Shown: one piece after another, positions 4,930 to 59,068 of the stretch
Numbering within the stretch: position 1 is the stretch's first letter
How the letters are laid out: every line of letters starts with the position of its first letter
DNA from: Harriotta raleighana
Taxonomy: Eukaryota
Direction of reading: 5' to 3'
DNA: 64,000 nucleotides
Assembly: GCA_050575255.1 (NCBI GenBank)
Contig: JBNZDD010013731.1
Span: forward strand, 11,965,956 to 12,029,955
Program-made: the position numbers and the translations under genes
The notes under the pieces: model-generated
Told to the model about the DNA's origin: nothing
Seen by the model: the letters and a program-made list of their open reading frames with translations, nothing else
Databases searched by the model: none

Positions 4930-4965
4930 GCAATTGGAGTTATTTCGGATGGGGAGAGCAACAAA
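4930..4965 (+). CDS. unc13b: unc13b 36-nt cassette microexon, (C)NWSYFGWGEQQ(T), phase 1-1
   Basis: Pyrimidine tract with TGC motifs, then CCACCAG|GC AAT TGG AGT TAT TTC GGA TGG GGA GAG CAA CAA A|GTATGT. Resembles the CNWNYFGWGEQ segment preceding DDPDSAVDD in Munc13-1 as I recall it; phase fits the next exon. Confidence 0.85.
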
Positions 4966-5629: not shown

Positions 5630-5846
5630 CACTTGAAGATCCAGACAGTGCTGTTGATGATAGGGATAGTGATTATCGTAGTGAGACAAGCAACAGTATT
5701 CCACCTCCCTACCACACCACCTCTCAGCCAAATGCATCCGTTCACCAGTTCCCAGTTCAATCACGTTTGCCACTCCAAGGTGGCTCAAGGGACCCCTACA
5801 CCGACCTAAACTATGACCTTGCTTACTGCGATCGGAAAGAAATGAG
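5630..5846 (+). CDS. unc13b: unc13b exon [42 protein letters not shown]...DRKEM(R), linker after C2A, phase 1-2
   Basis: TTTTTAG| acceptor and AG|GTAGGT donor. Peptide closely matches ubMunc13-2 [39 protein letters not shown]. Confidence 0.96.
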
Positions 5847-8638: not shown

Positions 8639-8764
8639 ACGATATGATAGCGTAGATTCTGCTGCAAATGGTCGTAGTGATCTAGAGTCTCCATCTGAGT
8701 CTAGTCAGCTAACCAGCCGCCAGTTCTCCCTCGAAAGTAGGCAGTCTCTAGATCTGTCCGATAG
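8639..8764 (+). CDS. unc13b: unc13b 126-nt symmetric cassette exon RYDSVDSAANGRSDLESPSESSQLTSRQFSLESRQSLDLSD, phase 2-2
   Basis: TTTTCCCTACCAG| acceptor, AG|GTGGGT donor, open in the frame required by the upstream exon, length a multiple of 3. Confidence 0.8.
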
Positions 8765-9110
8765 GTGGGTTCTGCTCTCTTTACAGCCTTGATGTTACCG
8801 TGTTCTGTAGTGCTGTGAAGAACGCCATTGGCAGCTGTTTGCATGCCTTTAATGTTTTCATATATGTTACATCTATGTTTAGGATACGACTACTTTTAAA
8901 TCAAAAGAACCAAATCAATTATAGTGTACTCATCAGCACAGGCAAATTGATATTATCTGATATTAGTGTTTTTAAGTCTTGTTTTAGTTTTGTTTTCTCA
9001 GTTATCTATTGATTTGAGATATTCAATATGATTCTTTTTTGTTTATCCTACCCTTTTCCAAATCCTTTTGTTCTCTACACTTTTGCACAAACTTTTTGAT
9101 CCTTACCAAG

Positions 9111-12100
9111 CCAAAAAGTATTAGCATTTAAAGAGAGAGTTAGAATTATACCTGTTGATTCTGGAGTGGGAGAGGAAGAGTGGGATCATAAGTATGACAA
9201 GTTAGGGAAACTGCTCATTGAGAACTTTTTAGTCGAAAGCCAAAGAAGTTGGCAAGAAGAAACTGCAAAGAAGAGCTATGCGATCAGAAAAAGTCAGCAA
9301 TGCAGGGAGCGTGCAGAAAGAGCATCGCGACACTCATTGAGATGTGATCAGTCCTTAACTGGGGAATCGCATGTTCCCAGACACTCTAGTTATCCGGAAG
9401 AATACAATACAATCGATAGGAGGAGGAAAAAGAAATGCAGATACAATAGTTTGGAGGATGGCAAATTGAAAATGCAATATTACCGTTCAAGTAGTCTTGA
9501 TTCAGAGGAAGGCATCCTTAGTGGCCTTCCTGAAATCAAATCTGAAAGTCAGAAATTGAATCAAAGTGACCCTGTACTACACAGGCATAACATCTCCGGA
9601 GTAGATGAGCAATATAACCAGCAACTAAATGCATATAAACATGGATCTATGTTGAAAAATAATGAGTGGAGAGATAATCAGTTGCTTCATAATGAATCTG
9701 ATGATATGATAGATATAGATGAATGCCTAGAAGAAATGTACAATGAGCAGATACTGAAGAAAAGAATGCTAGGGGAAATCTGTGGTGACTATGATGATGA
9801 GCAAGAAGATATATTAATGGGAAAGTCCTGGCGTGAAAGTGCAGATCCTTGCATTAAATATAGGGAACATGATCTTCGTGGAATGCATGGCCCTCAGAAA
9901 AAGTACCAGCTCAGCTATGATCATCATCTTGATGAAGAATCTGAACTCAGAGGAATGTTGCATTCCTCTCAAGGTGATGAAATGAATGAGGAGTATGTTG
10001 ATACAATGGATGAACTTCAATGTTTGGTGGAGTCTGTGTCTGAATACTTGGCTGAGAAAGAAGAAGAAATGAGCAAGTTTGGTTCACTTCCAAAGAGACA
10101 CAACAGGACTTTCCGAAAGTCTCAAGGAGAGATTGAGACCCTGCAGCATTACAACGTTGATGGCAGCGGTGAATGTTTTAAACCAAAAAGACAAGAAGGA
10201 TGCAGGAGACCGAAAGGTTTTGCTATAAATATTGATTGTGATGATAGTGATCAAAAACTAGACCCTATTCCAGACTTAACTGGAGTGAAGAATACCATGC
10301 AGTCTTTATTCAATTCAATAGGTGAAAAAGTAGGAGGAAATAAAAAACAGCCTTCAACCTCTGTGGAAAAAGGGGTTCCCACTTCCCTTGAAAATGAAGA
10401 TGAAAAGAGTAGGGGAGTCCTTGGTCTTGTAAAATTATCTTCTCCAAAGTCAATGCCCAGGAGTTTCACACCACCTTCATCCATGGAAGATAAAACAGAA
10501 ATAACTTTTTCTTCACAGTCTACTGGAACATTACAAGCCGACACCAGCAAGTCAGTTACATCTATTAATTCCGAGAACTCAGAGCAAAAGAAAGCTGGCA
10601 TTAATACCACTTTTACTTATCTTATGCAGGAGGCTCTGCATAATGACTATGACATTGTGAAGAACCAGTTATCATCTTCATCACAGAATACAATCATTGA
10701 TTCAGTCCTGGAGAAATTGAATCCCTTAACATTTTTCACAGAGAAAGATTCTGCTCCGGATTCTTCCAAACCTGCTGTGCAGAACAAAGAACACAAAATT
10801 TCTGAATTTCAGGCCAGCATTTCTGCTAACCTTGATACCCATGGGCATACTTTGAATTCATCTGGTGAAGAAAGAAAAGTTTCACCAAGATTAGAAAAAA
10901 AGCTTGATTCTAATGTTGCTTTGCAAGATGATTGTGATGACACTTTGTTGCAACAGGATAGCAATTTAAGTAGCAAAGAGCAAAAAGGAACTATTTTAGA
11001 CAAACAGTCAGGATATGCAATTGGATTGGACAGCAAATCAGAACCTGTTCAATTTTCACACACTTCAGCACAGGAAAGTAACAATGAGCACGTTGCTAAA
11101 ACCCTGCTGCCTCATCATGTTGGAAGTGTTGAGTTAGCACAAGATGTGAAAGCTTCTGATAAAATGGAATCATCTTTCCAATCAAAGCCTGACAGTGCTG
11201 ACAACTCTGGAATAAATTTTGGATTTTTCAACCCTCTGAAAAAGTCATTCAGCCAAATTATCCATTCTTCATCAGAAGAAGGTGCCTTCAGATTTCCTTA
11301 TTACAAATCTACCGAGGACCTTCGAGATGGGAAAGAAAGAATGAAAGATGATCAAACATTCTCTCTGGTTGGAAAGTTAAAACTTCCCTTCTTTTCATCT
11401 GAAAACATTGCTTCCGAAAAACCAAAAGAAGCAAAATCTGAGGGTGGCCTGTTTTCAGAAATGTTCAAATTTCCTACAGGTGAAAGAACATCTGCAACCA
11501 AAGAAGTGAATGCCAAACAGTCAGACAAAGTAAGAACATCTGGTGAACAACAAAAGGAGGGTAAGCAGACTAGCTTGTTTGGTGTTTTAAGGTTTTCATC
11601 AAGTCCAGAACATGGTACTGAAAAGGAGGGTATCATTGATAAACACGGTACCACTGAAAAAGACAAACAAAATAGTAGCCAGCAAGGTTTTTTCTCGAGC
11701 CTGCTTAAATTTACTTCCAGTGGAAGCCTGTCCACATCTAAAGAAGAATTGAGTGACAAAGAAGATTTAGGTAAAATGGTGAATGCATCAGCATTCCAAA
11801 AAGATCAAAACAAACCAGTACTATTTGTAGATGCAACAAAATCTCCCTCTAGTCAAGGTGTTGTAGAACCAAAACATGTATCGGTAAATGCAAATACAAA
11901 GGCCAGCAGTGTTCCCGAGACACAACAAACCATTCATGGAAACCAAGGATTCCATAAAGGCCTTTTTAAGTTATCTTCAACTGAAGATATATCCTCATTA
12001 AAACAAGAGGTAAGCAACCAAAAGTATCCAGATACAATAGGGAGAGCAGTGCAAGAATGTGATAGAAATAAAAGTTCAACTTTGTCAAATATTTCACTAA

Positions 12101-15100
12101 TTTCATTTCAACAAAATGTTATAGTGCAAAATGAAGAACTGGTAAATAAAAGTGAGGCAGTAAAACCAAACCCGTTACCCGAGAAAGATAAAGAGAACAG
12201 CAACCAGCCAGGATTTTTTTCAGCCTTATTCAATTCAGCAACAAGGAAACCAGAGGAGACGAGTAAGAATGACAGTCCTTTAAGTTTTTTTAAATTCATG
12301 AATAAAAGCGATGAAGCCAGCAAAACAGGAAATGAGAACCAAAGTGAAGGCAATCATTTATCTTCATTTTTCACAAAATCTGTCAATACACCAGAGAACA
12401 AGAATGAAGAAACATCATCCTTCAATTTGTTTAAACATTTTACTTCCAAAACAAAGGACAGTAGTGAACAAACTGAATTGAAGGAGAACCCCAATAAGCA
12501 GACACAATCAATGTGGTCTTCAAAGCAGCCAGAGAGCAGCAATGATAAACTATATGAGAATAAAGCATCTCATATTGTGCAGAATTCAAGTCCAAGTGAT
12601 GTCCCTGGAGTATCGAGAACTTGGCAGGCTCAAGCTTTGACAAAAACCTGTAAAAATATTCCTCAGGAATTTCAAGAAGGGCCCGAGCAAATTCCAATCG
12701 GAACACAAGCATACAAGGCTCCTTGGAATTCTTCATGTAGTGATATGGCTGAATATAATTCATTACCAATAAATAATGCAGCATTGATATATTTATTTCC
12801 ACATTCATTCCAAAGTCACCCAGAATTTATTAGGCCTGAATCGGGATTAAAAACTGAAGCATGCAGTGAAGTTTATTCTCAAGAAGATTCCAATCTGATC
12901 TGGACAGATATTTCTACTGCAGACCGTGATACTTTCCAGGATTCATATGAAGAGTTGAGCAACAGGACAGAAATGGACAATATTATAAATTTGTCGAACA
13001 AGGAGGAGGTCATTAATCCAGACGATGGCAGCTACTTATTTTCCAATAGGACTGAAAACATTATGGAACCTGAGTGTTTGGATTTTAGTGTAGCATCGGG
13101 TGATACCTACAGGTCATTTTCATATGCAAATTCTGCTGAAGAAAGCCTGAGCAAAACCTTAGAGAGATATTGGGATTCGTTAGAACTTAATGGAACTGTT
13201 GACTCATTTCTTGAAATGCCAATGGATCTAAGTTACTCTTCTAGCAATGCAGTTTCTTGGCTTATTCCAAATGAACAAGAATTAGTGACAGAAAAGGAAA
13301 AACAATTTTCTATCAGCAGTTATCAGGAGTATCAAGACTGGCTTGCTTTACTTGAAAACGGTTTATGGTGTCCTTCAGAAGATGGGGAATATGGCTACTA
13401 CATGTACAGTGATGGTGAATATATATATTCCTTGCTCACTGATGCCAATGGCCAATACGTGTATGTTTGGAGACCAGAGACAGATGAAGAACAGGAAGAT
13501 TGGGAGTATTATCAGCAATTGAATGGTGAATGTGATGTAGGACTGGGAGAGGACATGGTTTCTGTATGTGGTTTTAAGGTGCCCATTTCAAATGATTTTG
13601 ATTTGTTCTGGTACAATGAGGAAGAGCAGATTGAATCTGAAATGGACAATGCACCTCTTGATCTTTCTCTGGTTTGGGGAAGGAATGACCGAGCTGTATG
13701 GAAGAATTTAAATACTTTTTCACAACTGTTTGAAGATTCGATAGAATTGAATACGGATGAACCACTTGATTTTTCATCAAAGTACAAAATGTGCAAGCTG
13801 AAAAAACTTAAGATGGATTTTTCTTCTGAAGATCAAATTGAACATTTTCACGGAGAACTTCAGAATATTGCCTTTGATCTGCGAATCGTCCCAGGTAGTC
13901 AGTCGGCTCAGAAGCAGAGTAAAACTAGCACAACACTAGCAAATGAAATCTTAGATTGTGCATCTACAACACCGCAGTCGAAACTTTCATCAGTGGCAAC
14001 CTCATCAGGACTGTTTAGTCTGTTTCGTTCTTCTGTTAAATTGTCAGATCCTTCAACACAGAATACCTCTGAAACCAATCAACCTGAAGAGCACCAACAG
14101 CCTATCAAAAAGATAACATCTTTCTTTTCTTCATTGGGTGATCTTGTTGGAAATCAAAATGCTGAAAGTTCTGTGGTTTCTAGTTCGGCTTTACCAGGCT
14201 TGGCACCAGCCACCCCATCAAAGAGCACATTGGACATGACCAATGACACCATTTCTTTATCAAGAAATAATATGGATCAGACTAAGCCTAATGTTAGGGA
14301 TAGACAGCCTTCAGTTATCTCACAAGATGACAAACCAAGTAATATGTTTGCGTCTGGTTTAAAAAGTTTAAAATCAATATCTAGTAGCTGGAAGAGCACA
14401 ATGAGTGCTTCAGATGATGAACCATCTATTGTTGATCAGAGACACAAAATACAAGATCAGGATTTGGCTAGGTCACCTGCTTTGCACTCTCCTGAAGACT
14501 CAGCTAGAAGTGTAATGCAGCCATCACCTGAGGGGATGTCAAATATAAATCAAAATAAATCTAATGCTAGTGTCAAACCACCTCTAATGTCTTCTCAGCC
14601 TACTGCATTTCAAATACCCACTTCGACGACACACGACTCGTTCTTTAAAAATCCTCTCAAACTTTTTAACCCATCCGAAAATCAGACTCAAGCAAAAAGC
14701 AATGAGGAAACTCGAAGTTCTAGTTTCTTTGACATTTTTAAAAGTGCCAGTGCCAAAGAAGAGCAGAATTCGTCTGGCTTGAATTTTCCGTCGAGAGTAA
14801 CTGAGGCCCATGAAAAGGAGCAGAACAATCTTGGGAAATCTGTTCCTAATGTAGAAAAGCAGCCTTCTGGCATTTCATCCCTCTTTGGCTCAATTGGAGG
14901 ATTCTTCAAAATTGATCCAATTCAACATCCAGAACATGTAATGAATTCAAGTAAGAACGAAAATAAAAGTAAACTACCAATTGCAGCACAAATTGTGCAT
15001 GGTAAAACCAAGCAGAACGAACATGAGAATGCTCTTCTGGCTTGCTTAAGACCCGAGGTGCCATGCTCAAGGTCAAAGAGTTTGCAAAAGCAACGAACAC

Positions 15101-18100
15101 TAAGAGAACCGAATATTGGTTTTGAAACTACTGCAATGAAAATGGTGCCTTCGATGGATGAAGAAAATGATATAACCTCTGTAAATGTGGAACGCACTAG
15201 TGATGAGGCAGAAATAGTCTCTATGTATCAAAATAGATCTGCCTCAAATACTGATGGAGTTGTTATCAATGAATCTACTGTACAGTACCCTGAACACCCG
15301 CCCGGGACTGAAATAAATGCTGCACAAAATATCACCACAACAGAGTTTTCTGATCCCATCATGAAGCAAAGTATTCGAAGGAAATCCACAGTCACAGTTT
15401 GGGATAATCAGTTTAGTTCAGAAAAAGTTAATTCCCAGGTATCCATGAAGGTTCAAGGAAATGGTGAGAATCAAACTGATAGATTTGCTTCTCCATCAGA
15501 GACAGGAAAACAGGAACAAAAACCCAAACAATCTAGTCTCTTTAGTTTACCCTTTGGAGCAGGAGATTGGAAACTTCCAAATGTCTCAAGTCCCAAACAA
15601 CAGGGAACAAACAAAGGCCTATTTTCTTTCTTTAGTGGGTCAGATAATGCAAGTCAGACCCAAACCCCTAGTCGTGATGCATCATTTGCTGGAGCTAGGC
15701 CGACAGTCAGCTCAGAAGGATTTTTCAAATTACCATCATTCTTCTCAACCACTCCTCCAGCTGAGGAGAGAAAACCAAAGGGAAGCACCTCCAGCTTTAG
15801 TTTCTTGAACTTGACATTTCAGGATGAGAAAAGGTCAAAACCAGAGCAAAGGTTTTCAGAACCCACTCAAAATAATGCTGGCTTGTTATCAAGGCAGAAA
15901 GATGTGTTATCTGCTGGCTATTTGAGAGATCCTGATTGTAAAGACTGGAAAGGTGTACCAGAGAGAGAGCAGGTGGACAGAACAACATCAGCCATGCAGC
16001 AAAAGGTTCCTTTAACTTATAACAAAAATGGTTTAGGTGCACCTACTTTGCTGCCAACTTATGAAAATGATGAAGTTAAAATAGATAACACTGTTTGTGA
16101 TAGAGGTACTATTGCTGCTAAAAACTTCATGTATTCATATCCCATGGAGAGTGGAAGTATCCCCTATGTACCATGTCATCCTGATGTTTATAATGTTGAT
16201 ACTGGGGACTATGTTACTGCAGAAAACATTTTGGATGAAAATCTGACAGTAGGTCAAATTGACATTGAAAAGAGCTTGACAGTAGATCACATTGACATTG
16301 ATGAGAGGCTGACAACAGGTCACATTGACATTGATGAGAGTCCTCCAGCAGATTACTTTGACATTGATTACAACACTAAGAATAGTTTGCCTGTGAATGC
16401 TACAGATACAGATGAAGCCTGGACCACAGAAGTTGAAACCTATCTCCCAAATTTGTCAGACGAGACTGATGTAGAAGCCTCTAACCTGGGGATTGAGATG
16501 AGAAATAATTCGGATGAGATTGTTCTGGAAAGAGGAATAGTTTCAGAACCAAAATATTCTCAAGTGGATACGTCCAACAACTTGTTAAATGAAAAGCGGG
16601 AACCTCCAAATACCCCAAATGTTGATATGCTGACTGATTTTAATGCAAGGGAGAAGTTACCTGAAGGTGAAAAGTCTTTAATAGGCAACACAATGGAAGT
16701 GTTTTCAGGCTTTATGACAAAAGTGAAGTTATTTTCTAGCAGTGGAAGTGAATCTATGAAAACCACAACCACCTCATTTCCATCACTCTTTACAAACTCA
16801 AGTTCTCGGCCAAGTGCTCAACCAAGAAGTTCTTTTTTTAACTTGTCACACAATAATAGCCAGATGCCATCTGTAAAACCTGATTTGTTCAGCCTTTTTA
16901 AGGTACCTGCTGAAAAAACTAATCCAGCTGCAAATTTAGAAACCACTATGGTGCAAAACAAAACTGATGCATTTGAAGTTTGTAACAATTCCCAAAGTCT
17001 AGGAGAACCCCTCAAAACAGTCGGCGAAATGCCTATTGATGTTTCTCAGTGTAATATCGCTGGCACTTTATCGGAGCAGGAATCAGAAAATTACATTGAC
17101 AATAATATTCAATGTGACTACGAAAGCACCGATGTCCAAGTCCTTGAAGATGATACGTTCAATACTGAAGATAAATATCAAGTAACGGCCAGCAACACAG
17201 TGGAGTCAGAAGACCCAGATATTTTAGTTGCAGATGAAGGTTTTCTTGTTTCAGATACACAGCAAAGTGAAGAGGTGGAAGATGTTCCTGCAAATGATAG
17301 TATGTCTATTCCTGACACAGCAAGTGGAGATATTTTACAGTTGGGAAGTTACAGTCAAGAATTAGACCACTCGGTAGATGTTAAGTTTGAAGATCTTCCA
17401 AAAGATCAACCCATTTTGCAAATGCATTCCAAGGTTTTGGACGGGCCAGCCTCTTATGGCCTACCATCAAACGAAACTCCACAGAAGGGTGATTATGGGA
17501 CGACAAAATCTGTTTTTGAAATTCCCAGCATTGCTACATCTAAATTCAGTTTTTTGTCTTCTCGAGAAAGTGGCAAACCATTCAGTTTATTTTCACAGCA
17601 ACCATCTCCTTCGAGCGACCCGTCCAGAGAAACTGGTTTATTTTCGAGTTTTCGGAAATTTTCCAAGACATTATTCGATGCAGACAATGGCCAAGCACAG
17701 GATTTCACGCAGAGATCTGTCTTTGGGAAACTGGATCACTTTCCTTGGCAAAAAGAGAGTGCTGCTAAACAAGAGCATGCTGTGGTCACAAAACAACCTG
17801 TAGCAAGAGAAGAAATTGGGAAGAGTGCTCATGACATTCCAGACTTCAGTCACAGTGTAGATACCAAAAGTGAGAGTAGTGCATTAACAGATAAGACCAT
17901 TGTGGGAGAGTCTGAAAAGGTAGGTAATGTTGCAAATCAAAGTGAGAGCAGTTCCCTGAATGATCAAGTTAATCTTATGTCAGGACGTCCAGAGACTACC
18001 GCAACGTCTGCTCTTGAAAGTAGTTCTGAAATAATAGCTTCAGAATTACATACAGCGGAGCTACCAGCAGGAGCTTGTATACACTTGGAGAAGACAACTG

Positions 18101-18203
18101 AGACTGAAACCGATGTTTCCATTGAGACCTACTTATCTCCAGAGCTCCACCAGGCATCACCGCAGAGAGCTTTCAAGAGTTCGGACCTTTTGAATACGAA
18201 AAG
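9111..18203 (+). CDS. unc13b: unc13b giant 9093-nt cassette exon (3031 codons, largely low-complexity/disordered), phase 2-2; reads on to TGA at 18225 if unspliced
   Basis: Uninterrupted ORF 9166-18225 extends upstream in frame to an acceptor CCTTACCAAG| after a long pyrimidine tract. Candidate donor AAG|GCCAGT at 18203/18204 gives phase 2, matching exon 18981. Coding status is near certain; the 3' boundary is inferred. Confidence 0.85.
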
Positions 18204-18980
18204 GCCAGTCTTAGCTTACGCATGATAAATGGCACCAGTAGGTTGACCATTTATAATGCACTTAAAAGTAGGCAGATTGAAGTAGTTTGGTGTTTTTATT
18301 TTAAATCTTTCTCCTTGCATTTTAATTGTTTGTATGTCATTCCTGTTAAAATATCTACTTTTTCTTAAGTTACGCCATAACATTATGGCAGTCCTCTGAC
18401 TCTGTTTATTACCTATAATTTGAAATTACTATTTAATGCAACTTAAAAAGTCTTACATACAAAATGTGCAGGTCATTTACAATGTGCTTTGTGGAAGTTT
18501 TAGCTGTAGTTTGCTTTCTGTGAAGGTGACCATGTGGCAGTATTGTCATTAGTGTGCTAAGTGTAGTAGCACCTGCTGCTTTTGGTGCTGTGTTTTGTCA
18601 CCGTTTCTTAATATATGCCACGAAATGCATACTCTGAAGTATGATCATTAAAGCAATCAAATCCAAGGAATTAACTAAGGTTTATGTGTGAATGCATCGC
18701 AGTCTACATTATGAACGAACCAGGAATTCTTGAATCAAACCTAAAATGTACTTGTACAAAATTTTTCTAATGGTTAAACAATTAATGGTTTTTGGAACTT
18801 GTATAAGAAAATGATTTGGAATGGTTTAGAGTGAAAATTGCTGTCTCATACATTGGTTGCAAAATATCACATTAAAATACTGCTAATCTACCAATTATTA
18901 ATGGCTGCTATGCACTGTATATGTAAGCTTTGGTGCAACAGCTTTGAGTTAGTAGCTAAACTTTTTGATTTTGTCTACAG

Positions 18981-19313
18981 CCCAACAGGAAGCAGCAGAT
19001 ATGGCTCGTCAGGAAACCTCAGCCAAGGCAGCTCTCAACTTAGTGAACTTGACCGTGACAATGAGAGCATCCATGTGTCTGAGACAGAGGATAGGGGAGA
19101 TCGAGAGTCCTTTAAAGGCTCGGGAACTTTAAGGCCAAACGAACAGGAATGGCTCACTGGCCACGATGACGAGCAGGAGAATTTAAGTGAATGTGAGAAA
19201 GCTGAACATCGTGAAGATTTAGAAAACGATGAGAAATTGAATGAAGTTTTACCAGAAATTCCCTGCGACAGTATCTCTCCCCAGCCGGAGGTGACTGCAA
19301 AGCCACTTGACAG
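18981..19313 (+). CDS. unc13b: unc13b exon (S)[24 protein letters not shown]...KPLD, phase 2-2
   Basis: TTGTCTACAG| and AG|GTGGGT; matches ubMunc13-2 [25 protein letters not shown]. Confidence 0.94.
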
Positions 19314-28671: not shown

Positions 28672-29359
28672 CATATTTGTTGCTGTTCATGGTGAGACTG
28701 AGAATGGGATCAAGGTACTAGTGGGCCTGATGATGTTCCTCGTACAGTACCATCCCTGGCAGGAAAGCAGTAATAATATTCTGCTTGCAATGAATTGCAA
28801 CTCCTGATCCATATTTTCTTTAGTTCTATATTTTTAATTGGTGGATTATTTGTAACATAATTGCAGTGGTTAACTGGTCTTTTGGCTCCCTTAAGCAATG
28901 GTGTAAATTTATATATTTATTTCAGAAACCATAACGGTATTATATGTAAGATTCATTTATAACCCAGTGCATATTACTGTACTTTGAAACATAATTGTAT
29001 TTTTATCTTAATCTATGAATTTTGTCTTAGAATCCAGTGCCTTGGGACATCTTCCCGATGTGAAAGGCGCTCTACAAATGTAATTTTGTTGTTGTTGTAT
29101 GAATGATTAATTTATGGCTTCTGTGTTTCTGTAGTTCTGTTTCATGCATCTGTGAAGCAGTCTGCATTTTACTTACCACCAGGCTGGAAACTAATGCATA
29201 AAGGAAAAAGGTTAACAACACCTGAATTTCTATATCACCTATCACGGTGGGTAACAGCTCAAGTGTTTTAAGAACGTAGAAGCAGTAAATTCACAGGAAA
29301 TCTTTCAGTATAGTACATATTAACTAACCACTACATATTGTAATTGTAAATTTAATATA

Positions 29360-31895
29360 ATGATGTTTTCTAGAAAAGAGATGTTCAATTTAGAAAGGAA
29401 AAAGAGCATAACTATTGCTTTTAAATTCAAAGCATCAAAGACGAAAACCCTGAAGAAAAACAAACTTCCAAAGTCCAACATTTCACTGAGTTTGAAGCAT
29501 AAAATGCAGAGAGTATTACGATATGGTAGAGATTTTAACTTGTCTAGATTCAGAGACTGCCATCCTTCTGTTGAAATTGCAACTGATATGTTTGTGTGTG
29601 GCCTCAAATCAGAGAATCCAAAGATTACGGATTCCAGCAGTGGAAGAATAGGCTCCAACTCATCTACAAACAAAGAAGTTAATTTGCCAGCAACAATATG
29701 TAGCATGGAGGAACAAATAATAAATGATTGTGCACAAGTCCAAGATACAATTGAACAAAATAGGACTCGTTTTCCAAACAGAGAACCTCTGGACAACACT
29801 CCATTGCTTCATGGTTTGCAAACACTTAACAACAAAGAAATATTCAATGAATTAAGCAGTCAAGATCTGCTCATTGATGTACCTGGTGTAAATGCTGATC
29901 AAACTGTCAGTGCTTACAGCTTATGCTTAGGTAATAAGTACTTCCTAAACCAGTCAGAGGATAATGTTGAATGTATACTTAAAGAGTTACAAGGAATTAA
30001 TAAATTACAAGAAGGAATTATAGACTTACGAACCCAATTGTCTTCGTTGAAGGGTTCAATGGATGAAGTGTCCATTTGTGTAGATGCTTTGTTTAATGAA
30101 ATAAAGTGGTTGAGGAATACATTTCAGTCAAATGACTTAAATACTGTGCACAATTTGGATGAAGTAATGGACCCACAAGAAGATGTAATGCTATGCTTTT
30201 ACAATGTTCCTGAAGAATTCAATGAAAATCTAGAAAATATAATTTACAATCTTTTATCTAAGGATGATTGTGTTGATGACATTAAACACCTGTTCCATAT
30301 CAAGGAAATGTATCGATCAGATTTGATGAGGAACATTCAAGTTGGAGAACCGAGGCCCATTATAGCAATGTGTATCAGTCCTGAACACTGGGATCTCTTC
30401 TCCACCAAATGTTACCAGTTACAGAGCATGGGGATTGACGTTTCCATCTACATATCCTCAACAAGACATAAGCATAATTTGCTGCCTTCAGTGAATGCTG
30501 CGGTAGAGATGGGTTTGAATGAACACAAAAGGAAAACCTTCAAGCTTTGTGATAAGGAACCTGAAGGCACACTTAGTGGAATATTCAGTGGCTTAGAAGC
30601 TGGATCAGCTTTGTTACTCAGTAAGATTGATGAATTTGCCAAGACAGAAAGTCAAATTGATAAAGAAAAATGCTACTTTTGCAATCCAGTTGAAGTATAT
30701 GGTTTGTCACCGAAAACAAAAGATGAGTTTTCTATTGAGTGTAAGACTGACCAGAAGCTGAATGCTGATAGTTTGCTCATGGAAGAGTCTTCAGAGGTTC
30801 CTGAATATTTTTGGGATTTTGCAGAATATTGTGAGTTATCCTCAGAAGATTTGACTGTGCTGGAGCAAACTAAGGACCTGACTCGTGTGGAGGAAGATGA
30901 TTTAATGTTCCAGGAAGAAAAATATCATATTGAAATAACTCCCCCAAATCAGCTGGTGGCATCCTGCAGTGAAACATGTCAAATATCTACCAGTCAGATA
31001 ACACTATTGCATAATCATGAAGTGGAGAACTATATATCATCTGTGCAAAATGATTTTTATATAAATTTATCAGACGATGTGTATGACCGAGATTACGACA
31101 ATAATATACCTTTGCCTTGCAGTAAAGCTGAATGTTTGCTGAAAAGCACAGGTGCTGAAAAATATAGAAATTGCCATTGTAAATGTGACTATCAGGAATG
31201 GGGTCATTTTGTGGAGCAAGAAATAGATGGAAATCCCAAGAAGGAAAGCGTTCCTTCAGCGGATCTGAGGTCCAGCTTGAAAAGATTGGGAGAAAGGCTT
31301 CTACATTTGAAATCTGTTCTGAAGGCAGTATTTATGAGTTTAGAGAGTAAGAGCTCACAGAATCCTACAGATTCACTGTATGTTGATGCCAAAAAGTTTC
31401 AGAGCAGGAATCCAAAAAAGAACTGTTCGTTATATAAAAAGGATGATTTGAGGAAAGTAAATGAAGGCAACAGTGGAAATCAACATGAGGATTTTGCAAA
31501 AGAAGCTTGTGGCACATTAGTAGAGAATCTCACTGCACATCCACAGCCACCTTCAGCAAAAGGTTCATCCACTTGTTATCAACCTTCAGCACTCACCAGT
31601 ACACCTTGGAGGCTACTGCTTTACAAAGCTAAAGAGGCTTTTTCAGATCAAGGGCTACTTTCTTCTTGTGAAAGAGTCAAAATAAATGTCAACCATGACA
31701 AAAATAGTTTCTTAGATAGTTCCTCTAAATGCAGAGCCAGTGCTCCACAGACTGTGTCCGGAGATACTGAATATTTAAGCAAACGCATGACTCATTTTAG
31801 AAATGTTCTTGAAGAAAGACAACAAAGAACCTTAAAAGGCATAGAACATCATGACCACGTGATATCAGCTGATGAACAGGAAGCAAGAGTACAAG
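29360..31895 (+). CDS. unc13b: Alternative N-terminal coding exon of the bMunc13-2-type isoform (about 845 codons); reads on to TAA at 31984 if unspliced
   Basis: 874-aa ORF between the CaM exon and the common exons, where the brain-type N-terminus sits in mammals. Has a coiled coil ILKELQGI...EIKWLR and KRMTHFRNVLEERQQR, resembling the bMunc13-2 CaM site FKNVLREKR. Donor CAAG|GTATAT (phase 1); possible upstream acceptor TTTCTGTAG| at 29134. The start ATG is uncertain. Confidence 0.85.
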
Positions 31896-32891
31896 GTATA
31901 TCAGATACACCCATGAAACAATCTAGAAATGACATTACCCTCCATTACTGCGTGTCCTTTCCCTCCAAAAAGTCATTTATTTAATTGCCTGCTTGAATTT
32001 TGTGTTTGTACAAATAGTGGTTTTGTGAATTTGTGAATCTTTAAGATAATGATATTTGCAGGACAACATTTTAATCATTAACATACGGATATTAATAACA
32101 AAATTGTATTGAAGCACTGCTCCTCTTTTGCCAATAATTGTTCAGTCTGAATGAATAAAATAAATGATTGTATCTGAGATGCATCTGAATGCAAGAACCT
32201 GTCTCACTAAGTACATTATAATGATATTTTTCTTATTAATGACTTTTCCAATATGTTTCCATTATTCACAATGTAATGTTTTGTTGCTGAACAAAATGGA
32301 TATAATCTGGACTAATCACTTCTGAGCTATCTTCTAAATATCTAAAGGCTCAGAAACGTAGTCAATAATGAAATTTTTACTTTTAACTTTTAACATCCAA
32401 TTCCCATTCAAGTTCATTTTGTTTCTGCAATTGTCAGCAGTAACAAATATTAATGACAGCATTTTTTTCTCAAAATTCTTCTTGGGCTTTTTGACAACAA
32501 CAACAAAATTGCATTTATAGAGCATCTTTCAGGTCGTGTGGATGTCCCAAGGGCTTGACATCAAACTACACGATCTGAATCAAGATATCTTCAAAATATT
32601 GAAGAACATGTAATAAACCTCCCAGAGAAGAGTTATATTTTGTGTTATTAAGTAAATATTCCAACTGAAGTTCTTCAGTGGATTATTTATGAAGCACTGA
32701 GTAGTTTTTCATCTTTGATCTTTGCCCAAGTACCCTAGGCCGAGAACTGTGATGGCAATGCTTCTCCCAGGTCTGAGTGAGGCTCCATGTTACAAGGTGT
32801 GCTTCTTAGGAACCATATGACTTCTATTCTGTGCTTTCTTGTGATACCACAAATACGATTAGTCACTGGCTTGGGCATTAAATAAATAACT

Positions 32892-37917: not shown

Positions 37918-38119
37918 GTTGTCAGGTTAACACTGATGTCAATTTGCGTGTGCACACAATGCACTGGATGAATGCTGATATCATCCCATTTGGTGTGTGT
38001 ACATGCTAGCTGCAGAAAGCGTTGCTGATGTCACTTCACAAAAGCAGTGACTACAGCAATGCTTCCTGTGCGTACGCATGGTGATGTCACAAATATGAAT
38101 ACTTTTGGTGTTTTTGCAG

Positions 38120-38198
38120 GACTGGAGGTGGCCTGTTTGGTATTGACAGCATGCCAGACCTCCGGAAGAAAAAACCCATTCCACTTGTTAGCGATTTG
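38120..38198 (+). CDS. unc13b: unc13b exon [26 protein letters not shown], phase 2-0
   Basis: TTTTTGCAG| and TTG|GTGAGT; conserved Munc13 [17 protein letters not shown]. Confidence 0.97.
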
Positions 38199-58374: not shown

Positions 58375-59068
58375 TGCACTCTCCCAACCTCACCAAGCCA
58401 GTCAGGAACCTAGGTTTCTTGTTCGACCCTCAACTGTCTTTCCTTCCCCACATCCAAGCAATGACTTGTTCTGCCTTTCCCCACCTCCGCAACATTGCCC
58501 GACTCCACCACTACCTGACCCTCAAAGCCGCTGAAACCCTCATTCATGCCTTTTTTACATCCCGGCTCGACTATGCAAATCCTCTGTTTGTTGGTCTTCC
58601 CAATTCCTCCCTCCATAGGCTGTAGATCATCCAGAACTCTGTGGCCCGTTCCAAACTCCGTAATCACGTCTCCCCCATCCTCATCCGAATCCATTGGCTC
58701 CCCATCATCCAGAGGATCCAATTCAAGATCCTGGTCCTCACATTTACGGCCTTCCACAATCTCACCCCACCCTACATCTGTGACCTCCTATTCCTTTACC
58801 AACCTGCCCGCTCCCTCTGCTCAGCAAACTCTGGCCAGCTCCACATCCCTCAACCCACCTGTTCCCATCTCACTCCTTTCCTGGCCTCTTTCAAGTCTCT
58901 CTTCAAGACTCTCCTCTTCGATGGACCCATCGGCAATTCCTAATTCCCCCCCCCCGCCCCCCCGCAACCCGTCCTCAGCTTGGGTCTGAAACAGTGACTG
59001 TCCAGCGCCTAGGGATGCCCTCCTGACATGAAAGGTGCTGTACAAGTGTAATTTTGTTGCTGTTGTTG
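58375..59068 (+). mobile_element. L2/CR1-clade LINE 3' fragment (ORF2 C-terminus remnant with stop codons and frameshifts)
   Basis: VRNLGFLFDPQLSF..HI....SAF.HLRNIARL...AETLIHAFFTSRLDYAN...GLP, then HVSPILIRIHWLPIIQRIQFKILVLTF; tail AAAGGTGCTGTACAAGTGTAATTTTGTTG. Confidence 0.9.

Follow-up and report, generated by a model that had tools for sequence, protein, structure and literature searches.

The stretch of DNA analysed here (the window) comprises 64,000 nucleotides of a contig of Harriotta raleighana and contains part of UNC13B, the gene for Munc13-2. Using tblastn, some 20 exons of the eagle and turtle UNC13B proteins could be mapped in order across the window, which bears out the gene identity given in an earlier, sequence-only reading of this DNA. 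Exons for the C1, C2B and MUN domains are present downstream and are homologous to those of named UNC13B proteins (Pfam was run on the gibbon homolog). The C2A exons lie upstream of the window, and C2A is present in the homologs which carry the giant exon listed in Table 1.

Table 1. Features of the UNC13B locus, with positions in the window
Feature	Position	Strand	Remarks
Upstream UNC13B exon	5630..5846	+	Phase-2 end GAG/GTAGGT, able to join 18981 directly
Cassette exon 5' of the giant exon	8639..8764	+	126 nt, phase 2
Giant UNC13B exon	9111..18203	+	9,093 nt, 3,031 codons, phase 2-2
Likely alternative acceptor TAG/T	9388..9390	+	Phase 2; matches entry point of human, turtle and some other models
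Conserved island DELQCLVESVSEYLAEKEEE	9955..10119	+	Likely helical; mean identity 0.60 vs 0.20 for the exon
PXDLS motif 1 (PMDLS)	13219..13233	+	
Aromatic-rich core island	13306..13497	+	Helix and four-strand meander predicted from a model; flanked by PMDLS, PLDLS and PLDFS
PXDLS motif 2 (PLDLS)	13654..13668	+	Best conserved
PXDLS-like motif 3 (PLDFS)	13762..13776	+	
GC donor AAG/GCCAGT	18201..18209	+	From sequence; K-R-[P/L]-V footprint across vertebrates; same in X1 and X2
Read-through codons and TGA stop	18204..18225	+	
Predicted intronic RNA hairpin	18220..18259	+	40 nt, conserved arms
ATTAAA, candidate intronic poly(A) signal	18647..18652	+	Unchanged in X1 and X2
Downstream UNC13B exon	18981..19313	+	First residue S

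The giant exon is flanked by an AAG/C acceptor at 9110/9111 and an AAG/GCCAGT donor at 18203/18204 (slashes mark exon boundaries), and the next acceptor on its 3' side is CAG/C at 18980/18981. It lies in a stop-free frame of 3,041 codons (9100-18225) which terminates in NTKRPVLAYA followed by the TGA, seven codons past the GC site as had been stated. When 8640-8764, the giant exon and the sequence from 18981 onward were joined in silico, 3,184 codons without a stop resulted, in agreement with the limits, length and symmetric phase 2 first proposed for the exon. The register of the acceptor agrees with the bamboo shark and eagle models. Judging from the homologous models, the internal acceptor at 9389/9390 is likely usable in H. 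raleighana as well.

The best matches of the giant frame are in catshark and bamboo shark, which identifies the source as a cartilaginous fish. At E≤0.001 there were 68 homologs among 7,986 scored candidates, so the similarity is not due to chance; a second search gave 98 among 4,572. In both searches the homologs ranged over sharks, sturgeon, teleosts, frogs, reptiles, birds and mammals. The source genome has one copy of the core island; a search with it against 1.84 billion representatives gave 63 matches, of which ten were looked up, and the eight that were named all come from jawed vertebrates. A scan of metagenomes yielded one teleost-like locus from 264 pattern matches, which has the acceptor and ends 5' of the donor. 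From sharks to humans the frame remains open for approximately 2,700-3,500 codons with its invariant motifs kept, and the human RefSeq protein NP_001358118.1 (4,340 aa) carries the exon. The sequence-only reading had pointed to very long UNC13B isoforms in mammalian annotation and thought the exon probably conserved, and both statements hold.

Exit from the giant exon

The intron which follows the exon has GC at +1/+2, AG at -2/-1, GT at +5/+6 and an AG acceptor, the pattern of GC-AG introns. On a simple donor matrix this site scores 4.42 and is the top phase-2 donor in the frame; the best phase-2 GT, at 10550, reaches only 1.59, consistent with the earlier claim that no strong phase-2 GT donor lies near the frame end. 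A GT donor at 17919 scores higher than the GC site (6.2), but was rejected as an exit: it is in phase 0, its use would bring in a stop after 20 codons of the downstream exon, and the 19 aligned homologs do not preserve its codons.

Among 152 proteins compared, 90 run on into the next exon; 82 of these join x-S-P at the register of the window and eight leave the giant exon elsewhere, the 90 spliced models including many isoforms of single species. Unspliced frames end in K-R-[P/L]-V and a short tail. A human pair is informative at this point. NP_001358118.1 reads TNK/SPT and the unspliced P0169 reads TNK-R-P-V, with 2,723 of 2,723 upstream residues identical; since the codons for S and R share only AG, and the P codon puts C at intron position +2, the human donor must be GC. 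Read from these codons, it is AG/GCCNGT. The residue after R (n = 77) is P in 36 cases, L in 39 and another in two. Proline is found in sharks, sturgeon, lizards, axolotl, Xenopus, marsupials and most placentals. Leucine is found in birds and most teleosts and fits either a GC or a GT donor; for these animals we infer a GC donor as a one-step reading. In a relative approximately 91% identical in the exon, 18197-18260 is unchanged in both of two sequencing runs from one study (X1 and X2). The conservation of the GC donor at the orthologous position, a point raised by the sequence-only reading, is thus upheld by the shared register and by the forced GC in human. One orangutan model (PNJ26536.1), which may be a prediction artefact, reads past the GC site for some 20 codons and is then spliced to a different exon.

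Three outcomes had been envisaged for this exon, namely skipping, inclusion and read-through, and each exists as an annotated protein in homologs. All 13 short isoforms checked skip it. That skipping gives ordinary ubMunc13-2 stands to this extent, but the short form usually drops the 126-nt exon too (11 of 13; it is present in the other two). This small exon is kept in birds, frogs and Harriotta and absent from the mammalian proteins inspected. Inclusion with onward splicing is represented by the 90 proteins mentioned above, and read-through by models annotated in bamboo shark, manakin, Pogona, hamster and guinea pig, which consist of C2A plus the giant region. Across species the read-through tail extends 2-39 residues past R and is not conserved as protein, so that truncation itself alone could matter. 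Both ATTAAA hexamers listed earlier, at 18647 and 18871, were found in the window; GATAAA at 18224 is a further candidate poly(A) signal. Poly(A) signals and cryptic donors are no scarcer inside the giant exon than in 200 synonymous shuffles of it. The intron stretch 18382-18687 (+), which includes the ATTAAA at 18647, is approximately 94-95% identical in the relative, against approximately 91% in the exon.

The runs X1 and X2, which are RNA by guess only, provide a few joints. In one X1 contig 8764 is joined to 18981, with a shorter side of 30 letters, which falls one short of the threshold of the tool. In X2, exon 5630-5846 is joined to 18981 by a contig whose loose end before 18979 matches the exon end in 29 of 30 letters. 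An X1 contig is unspliced from 9059 to 18291 and may be DNA or pre-mRNA. These contigs, which drop rare forms, contain no joint that enters or leaves the giant exon at a 10% share, and none that leaves it at a 1% share. From the homologs, inclusion of the exon through the GC donor very probably occurs in some cells; most likely it is a regulated exon which is usually skipped.

Immediately downstream of the donor the RNA is predicted to fold into a hairpin, with a weaker outer stem formed by 18206-18219 and 18268-18279. Neither this hairpin nor the PXDLS/T cluster described below figured in the sequence-only reading. The folding z is -4.25 for 18220-18259 alone and -5.18 for intron positions +1 to +80. 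The latter is the best among the 15 donors of the gene, and 5 of 798 window tiles reach the same value; within the window the hairpin is therefore unusual, not unique. With the splice-site residues removed, each of six distinct read-through tails from mammals has its top score at position 18219 of the window, out of 127,912 positions; they come from related species and are effectively one test. They match in a frame shifted by one base, and hence it is DNA rather than protein that is conserved there. The Xenopus tail, again from peptide, fits both arms with a shorter loop. Read in this manner from peptides, the arms appear to persist in mammals and Xenopus. In the relative a single change, at 18275, breaks a pair of the outer stem. 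No Rfam match was obtained for 18100-19000. Masking of the donor by structure is not supported, the predicted accessibility of the GC donor (0.12-0.27) being unremarkable beside that of the 14 remaining donors of the gene (0.02-0.68). On the predicted fold we infer that the hairpin is a splicing-regulatory structure, and it is rather likely that the weak donor and the hairpin together set the frequencies of skipping, inclusion and read-through. When more flanking sequence is folded, a pairing (18183-18206) is predicted between the donor and positions 18183-18189 of the exon, the codons for the D-L of a DLL motif that fishes retain.

The insert and its PXDLS/T motifs

The insert specified by the giant exon is acidic, with a net charge of -159, and rich in serine (13.6%), belongs to no Pfam family, and contains about 12 short conserved islands in a sequence whose mean identity is 0.20. 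A model of the aromatic-rich core island gives pLDDT values of 73-82 for a block over residues 61-100, with a model mean of 48 and low confidence in the motif regions. The island itself had no Pfam family, no PDB sequence match and no usable Atlas match; for the model there was no Foldseek match at E≤0.001, and the best VIA Z was 3.9, to propeller blades, which is generic.

Around this island are three motifs of the PXDLS type, with weaker look-alikes at 12982-12996 and 13870-13884. In motif 2 the residues P169, L170, L172 and S173 are invariant in 43 rows. Strict PxDLS occurs once or twice in each of 20 vertebrates, where 0.07-0.17 would be expected, and CtBP-type PXDLS/T motifs are found in 146 of the 147 exon-containing proteins with a core island (five proteins without the island are left out of this count) and in none of nine short isoforms. 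Among divergent representatives 21 of 53 are without strict PxDLS, while P-x-[D/N]-L-[S/T] is kept at site 2 in 45 of 52 (a hand count, with one core-less row dropped). Frogs have PLDLA at this site. The substitutions seen at the motif are S/T, D/N and a free second position.

PXDLS/T motifs are ligands of CtBP2 and of the B domain of RIBEYE, the site of Piccolo being PVDLT (PMC10760060). By the motif definition of that paper, the giant exon encodes such motifs, conserved and in a predicted disordered region. The source genome has CtBP-type genes at three loci. A five-residue motif is a capacity to bind and not binding; from the motifs, the exon probably engages the CtBP cleft, of CtBP1 or of RIBEYE (the scaffold at ribbon synapses of sensory cells), in a multivalent fashion. 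That the scaffold so bound is the synaptic ribbon is possible, though we regard it as doubtful.

Repeated SLF/GLF-type segments are enriched in the insert: they number 10 against 0.16 expected, by a pattern taken from the Harriotta sequence and also enriched in 19 others. A count of S/T/G-rich amphipathic segments, as in curvature sensors of the ALPS type, gave four, with a mean of 0.67 and a maximum of 4 in 30 shuffles, and three in human with a shuffled maximum of 2. At 16234-16368 (+) the exon holds four copies of a 33-nt (11-codon) repeat encoding an HIDID-like peptide, and this is the site of a length difference in the relative.

A proposed role for giant Munc13-2

The explanation which we favour, with moderate confidence, is that UNC13B has an ancient exon with a GC donor and hairpin, included in restricted cells, whose motifs anchor Munc13-2 to scaffolds of the CtBP family. 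What is shown of this is the frame, the register of splicing, the sequence of the donor and the conservation of the motifs; the remainder is as follows. By default the giant exon would be skipped to give ordinary ubMunc13-2. In some cells its inclusion via the GC donor would introduce approximately 3,000 residues, for the most part disordered, as a long flexible tether running from C2A to the calmodulin site and the C1-C2B-MUN priming module, and the PXDLS/T cluster would hold the priming machinery at a CtBP-containing scaffold (CtBP1 or RIBEYE). Non-splicing combined with intronic polyadenylation would give rise to a truncation like that of Piccolino. A more specific version, in which a previously undescribed giant Munc13-2 of jawed vertebrates binds RIBEYE and so links the ribbon to priming, with the GC donor and hairpin as a switch to a truncated scaffold, is speculative and we consider it rather unlikely. 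Against a role at ribbons, the review PMC6539712 has loss of Munc13-2 leaving docked vesicles unchanged at photoreceptor ribbons, with a moderate effect there, and Munc13 mutants showing no effect on hair-cell exocytosis.

The truncated form might instead be the main product. The weak GC donor and hairpin would then favour non-splicing, an intronic poly(A) site would end the RNA, and C2A plus the giant region, devoid of C1, C2B and MUN, would act as a scaffold or as a decoy binding RIM, much like Piccolino. The RefSeq read-through models in five animals, the ATTAAA at 18647 unchanged in the relative and the unspliced X1 contig point in this direction, as does the origin of Piccolino itself from intron retention, with an intron-encoded tail that varies by species (PMC3735604). 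The models may, however, reflect nothing but the failure of a predictor to call a GC intron; their tails are of very uneven length, and the conserved in-frame donor argues for selected, spliced inclusion. A stop codon far upstream of later junctions invites nonsense-mediated decay where polyadenylation does not intervene, and this counts against truncation without a poly(A) site. Taken together we hold truncation to be unlikely as the main outcome. The exon could also be real and its motifs serve some partner other than CtBP, or CtBP1 outside ribbons, the insert acting mainly as a spacer or condensate former. Conservation restricted to a dozen short islands would suit such a role, the motifs flank an aromatic island on which they could pack, and the ribbon phenotype of Munc13-2 loss is moderate (PMC6539712). 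Yet S/T, one of the substitutions at the motif, is an exchange that the CtBP cleft is described as tolerating (PMC10760060), and the low model confidence around the motifs does not suggest a folded core, so we judge this account quite improbable. Finally, the frame might be rarely used or vestigial, its annotation propagated between genomes and little protein made. We found no description of the protein of this isoform in open-access text, and the isoform used for annotation in a study of human genetics is that of 1,591 aa (PMC8634081). A frame kept open with invariant motifs from sharks to humans already makes the vestigial reading unlikely, and the frame also occurs in unannotated, assembly-derived sequences; we give it very little credence.

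With cell-restricted inclusion as the preferred reading, the giant form may be compared with known proteins. Human isoform 6 (NP_001358118.1) has the same exon, exit register and motif cluster; it differs from the longest Harriotta form in using the internal acceptor, which gives an insert of 2,749 aa rather than 3,031 codons, and in lacking the 126-nt exon. In the relevant passages of PMC11292464 it is named solely as a cloning reference. The only two Munc13-2 variants described in PMC5379939, ubMunc13-2 and bMunc13-2, come from the same gene and share C2A, the calmodulin site and C1-C2B-MUN; unlike the giant form, the short isoforms are without PxDLS.

Piccolino, a truncated Piccolo of ribbon synapses, resembles giant Munc13-2 in being presynaptic, of very great size and equipped with several PXDLS-like motifs (PMC3735604, PMC10760060, bioRxiv 10.64898/2026.04.28.721253). 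It is truncated by non-splicing and an intronic stop (PMC3735604), for which the stop and the annotated models may be the Munc13-2 counterpart, and its multivalent binding of CtBP/RIBEYE (bioRxiv 10.64898/2026.04.28.721253) offers an analogue for the motifs found here. It differs in being the product of another gene; giant Munc13-2 has no zinc fingers, and its motifs belong to a priming factor, where the exon encoding them is optional. For Piccolino, binding and a place at the ribbon have been demonstrated; for giant Munc13-2 both are proposals. By this analogy giant Munc13-2 may work like Piccolino, without being a member of the Piccolo family. The giant ankyrins, whose giant neuronal isoforms differ from the common protein by a single exon of great length (PMC5135030), resemble it in exon layout; a relation in sequence is not claimed.

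The exon and the giant isoform are already annotated. In open-access text (subscription papers and bioRxiv supplements being outside the scope) we found no description of the giant isoform, GC donor, hairpin or motif cluster and no paper combining UNC13B, CtBP and PXDLS, and UNC13B was absent from three supplementary text files of a retina long-read paper. If the proposal is true, CtBP at the ribbon or active zone would be linked directly to vesicle priming by a conserved motif cluster within the priming factor itself. With the giant exon the coding length of UNC13B becomes approximately three times as great; the gene is associated with human epilepsy, and its variants were annotated to the shorter isoform noted above (PMC8634081). 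If the exon and GC donor alone hold, an annotated but unstudied isoform is what remains.

Several further features of the window deserve mention. At 4932-4961 (+) there is a micro-exon, NWSYFGWGEQ, all ten residues of which are identical in eagle; it is absent in many homologs and is probably optional. The intron after the calmodulin-site exon contains an open frame of 886 codons (29324-31984, +), without PxDLS, to which one homolog (P0040) has similar sequence and which is likely a bMunc13-2-type alternative first exon. A strong predicted hairpin at 38001-38080 (-37.9 kcal/mol, z -5.8) closely precedes the exon at 38120, the likely meeting point of the bMunc13-2-type and ubiquitous forms; good folding (z -3.9) is also predicted for the intron that follows this exon. 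Lastly, a proline/serine-rich intronic frame of 156 codons at 58519-58989 (+) is possibly a remnant of a retroelement.
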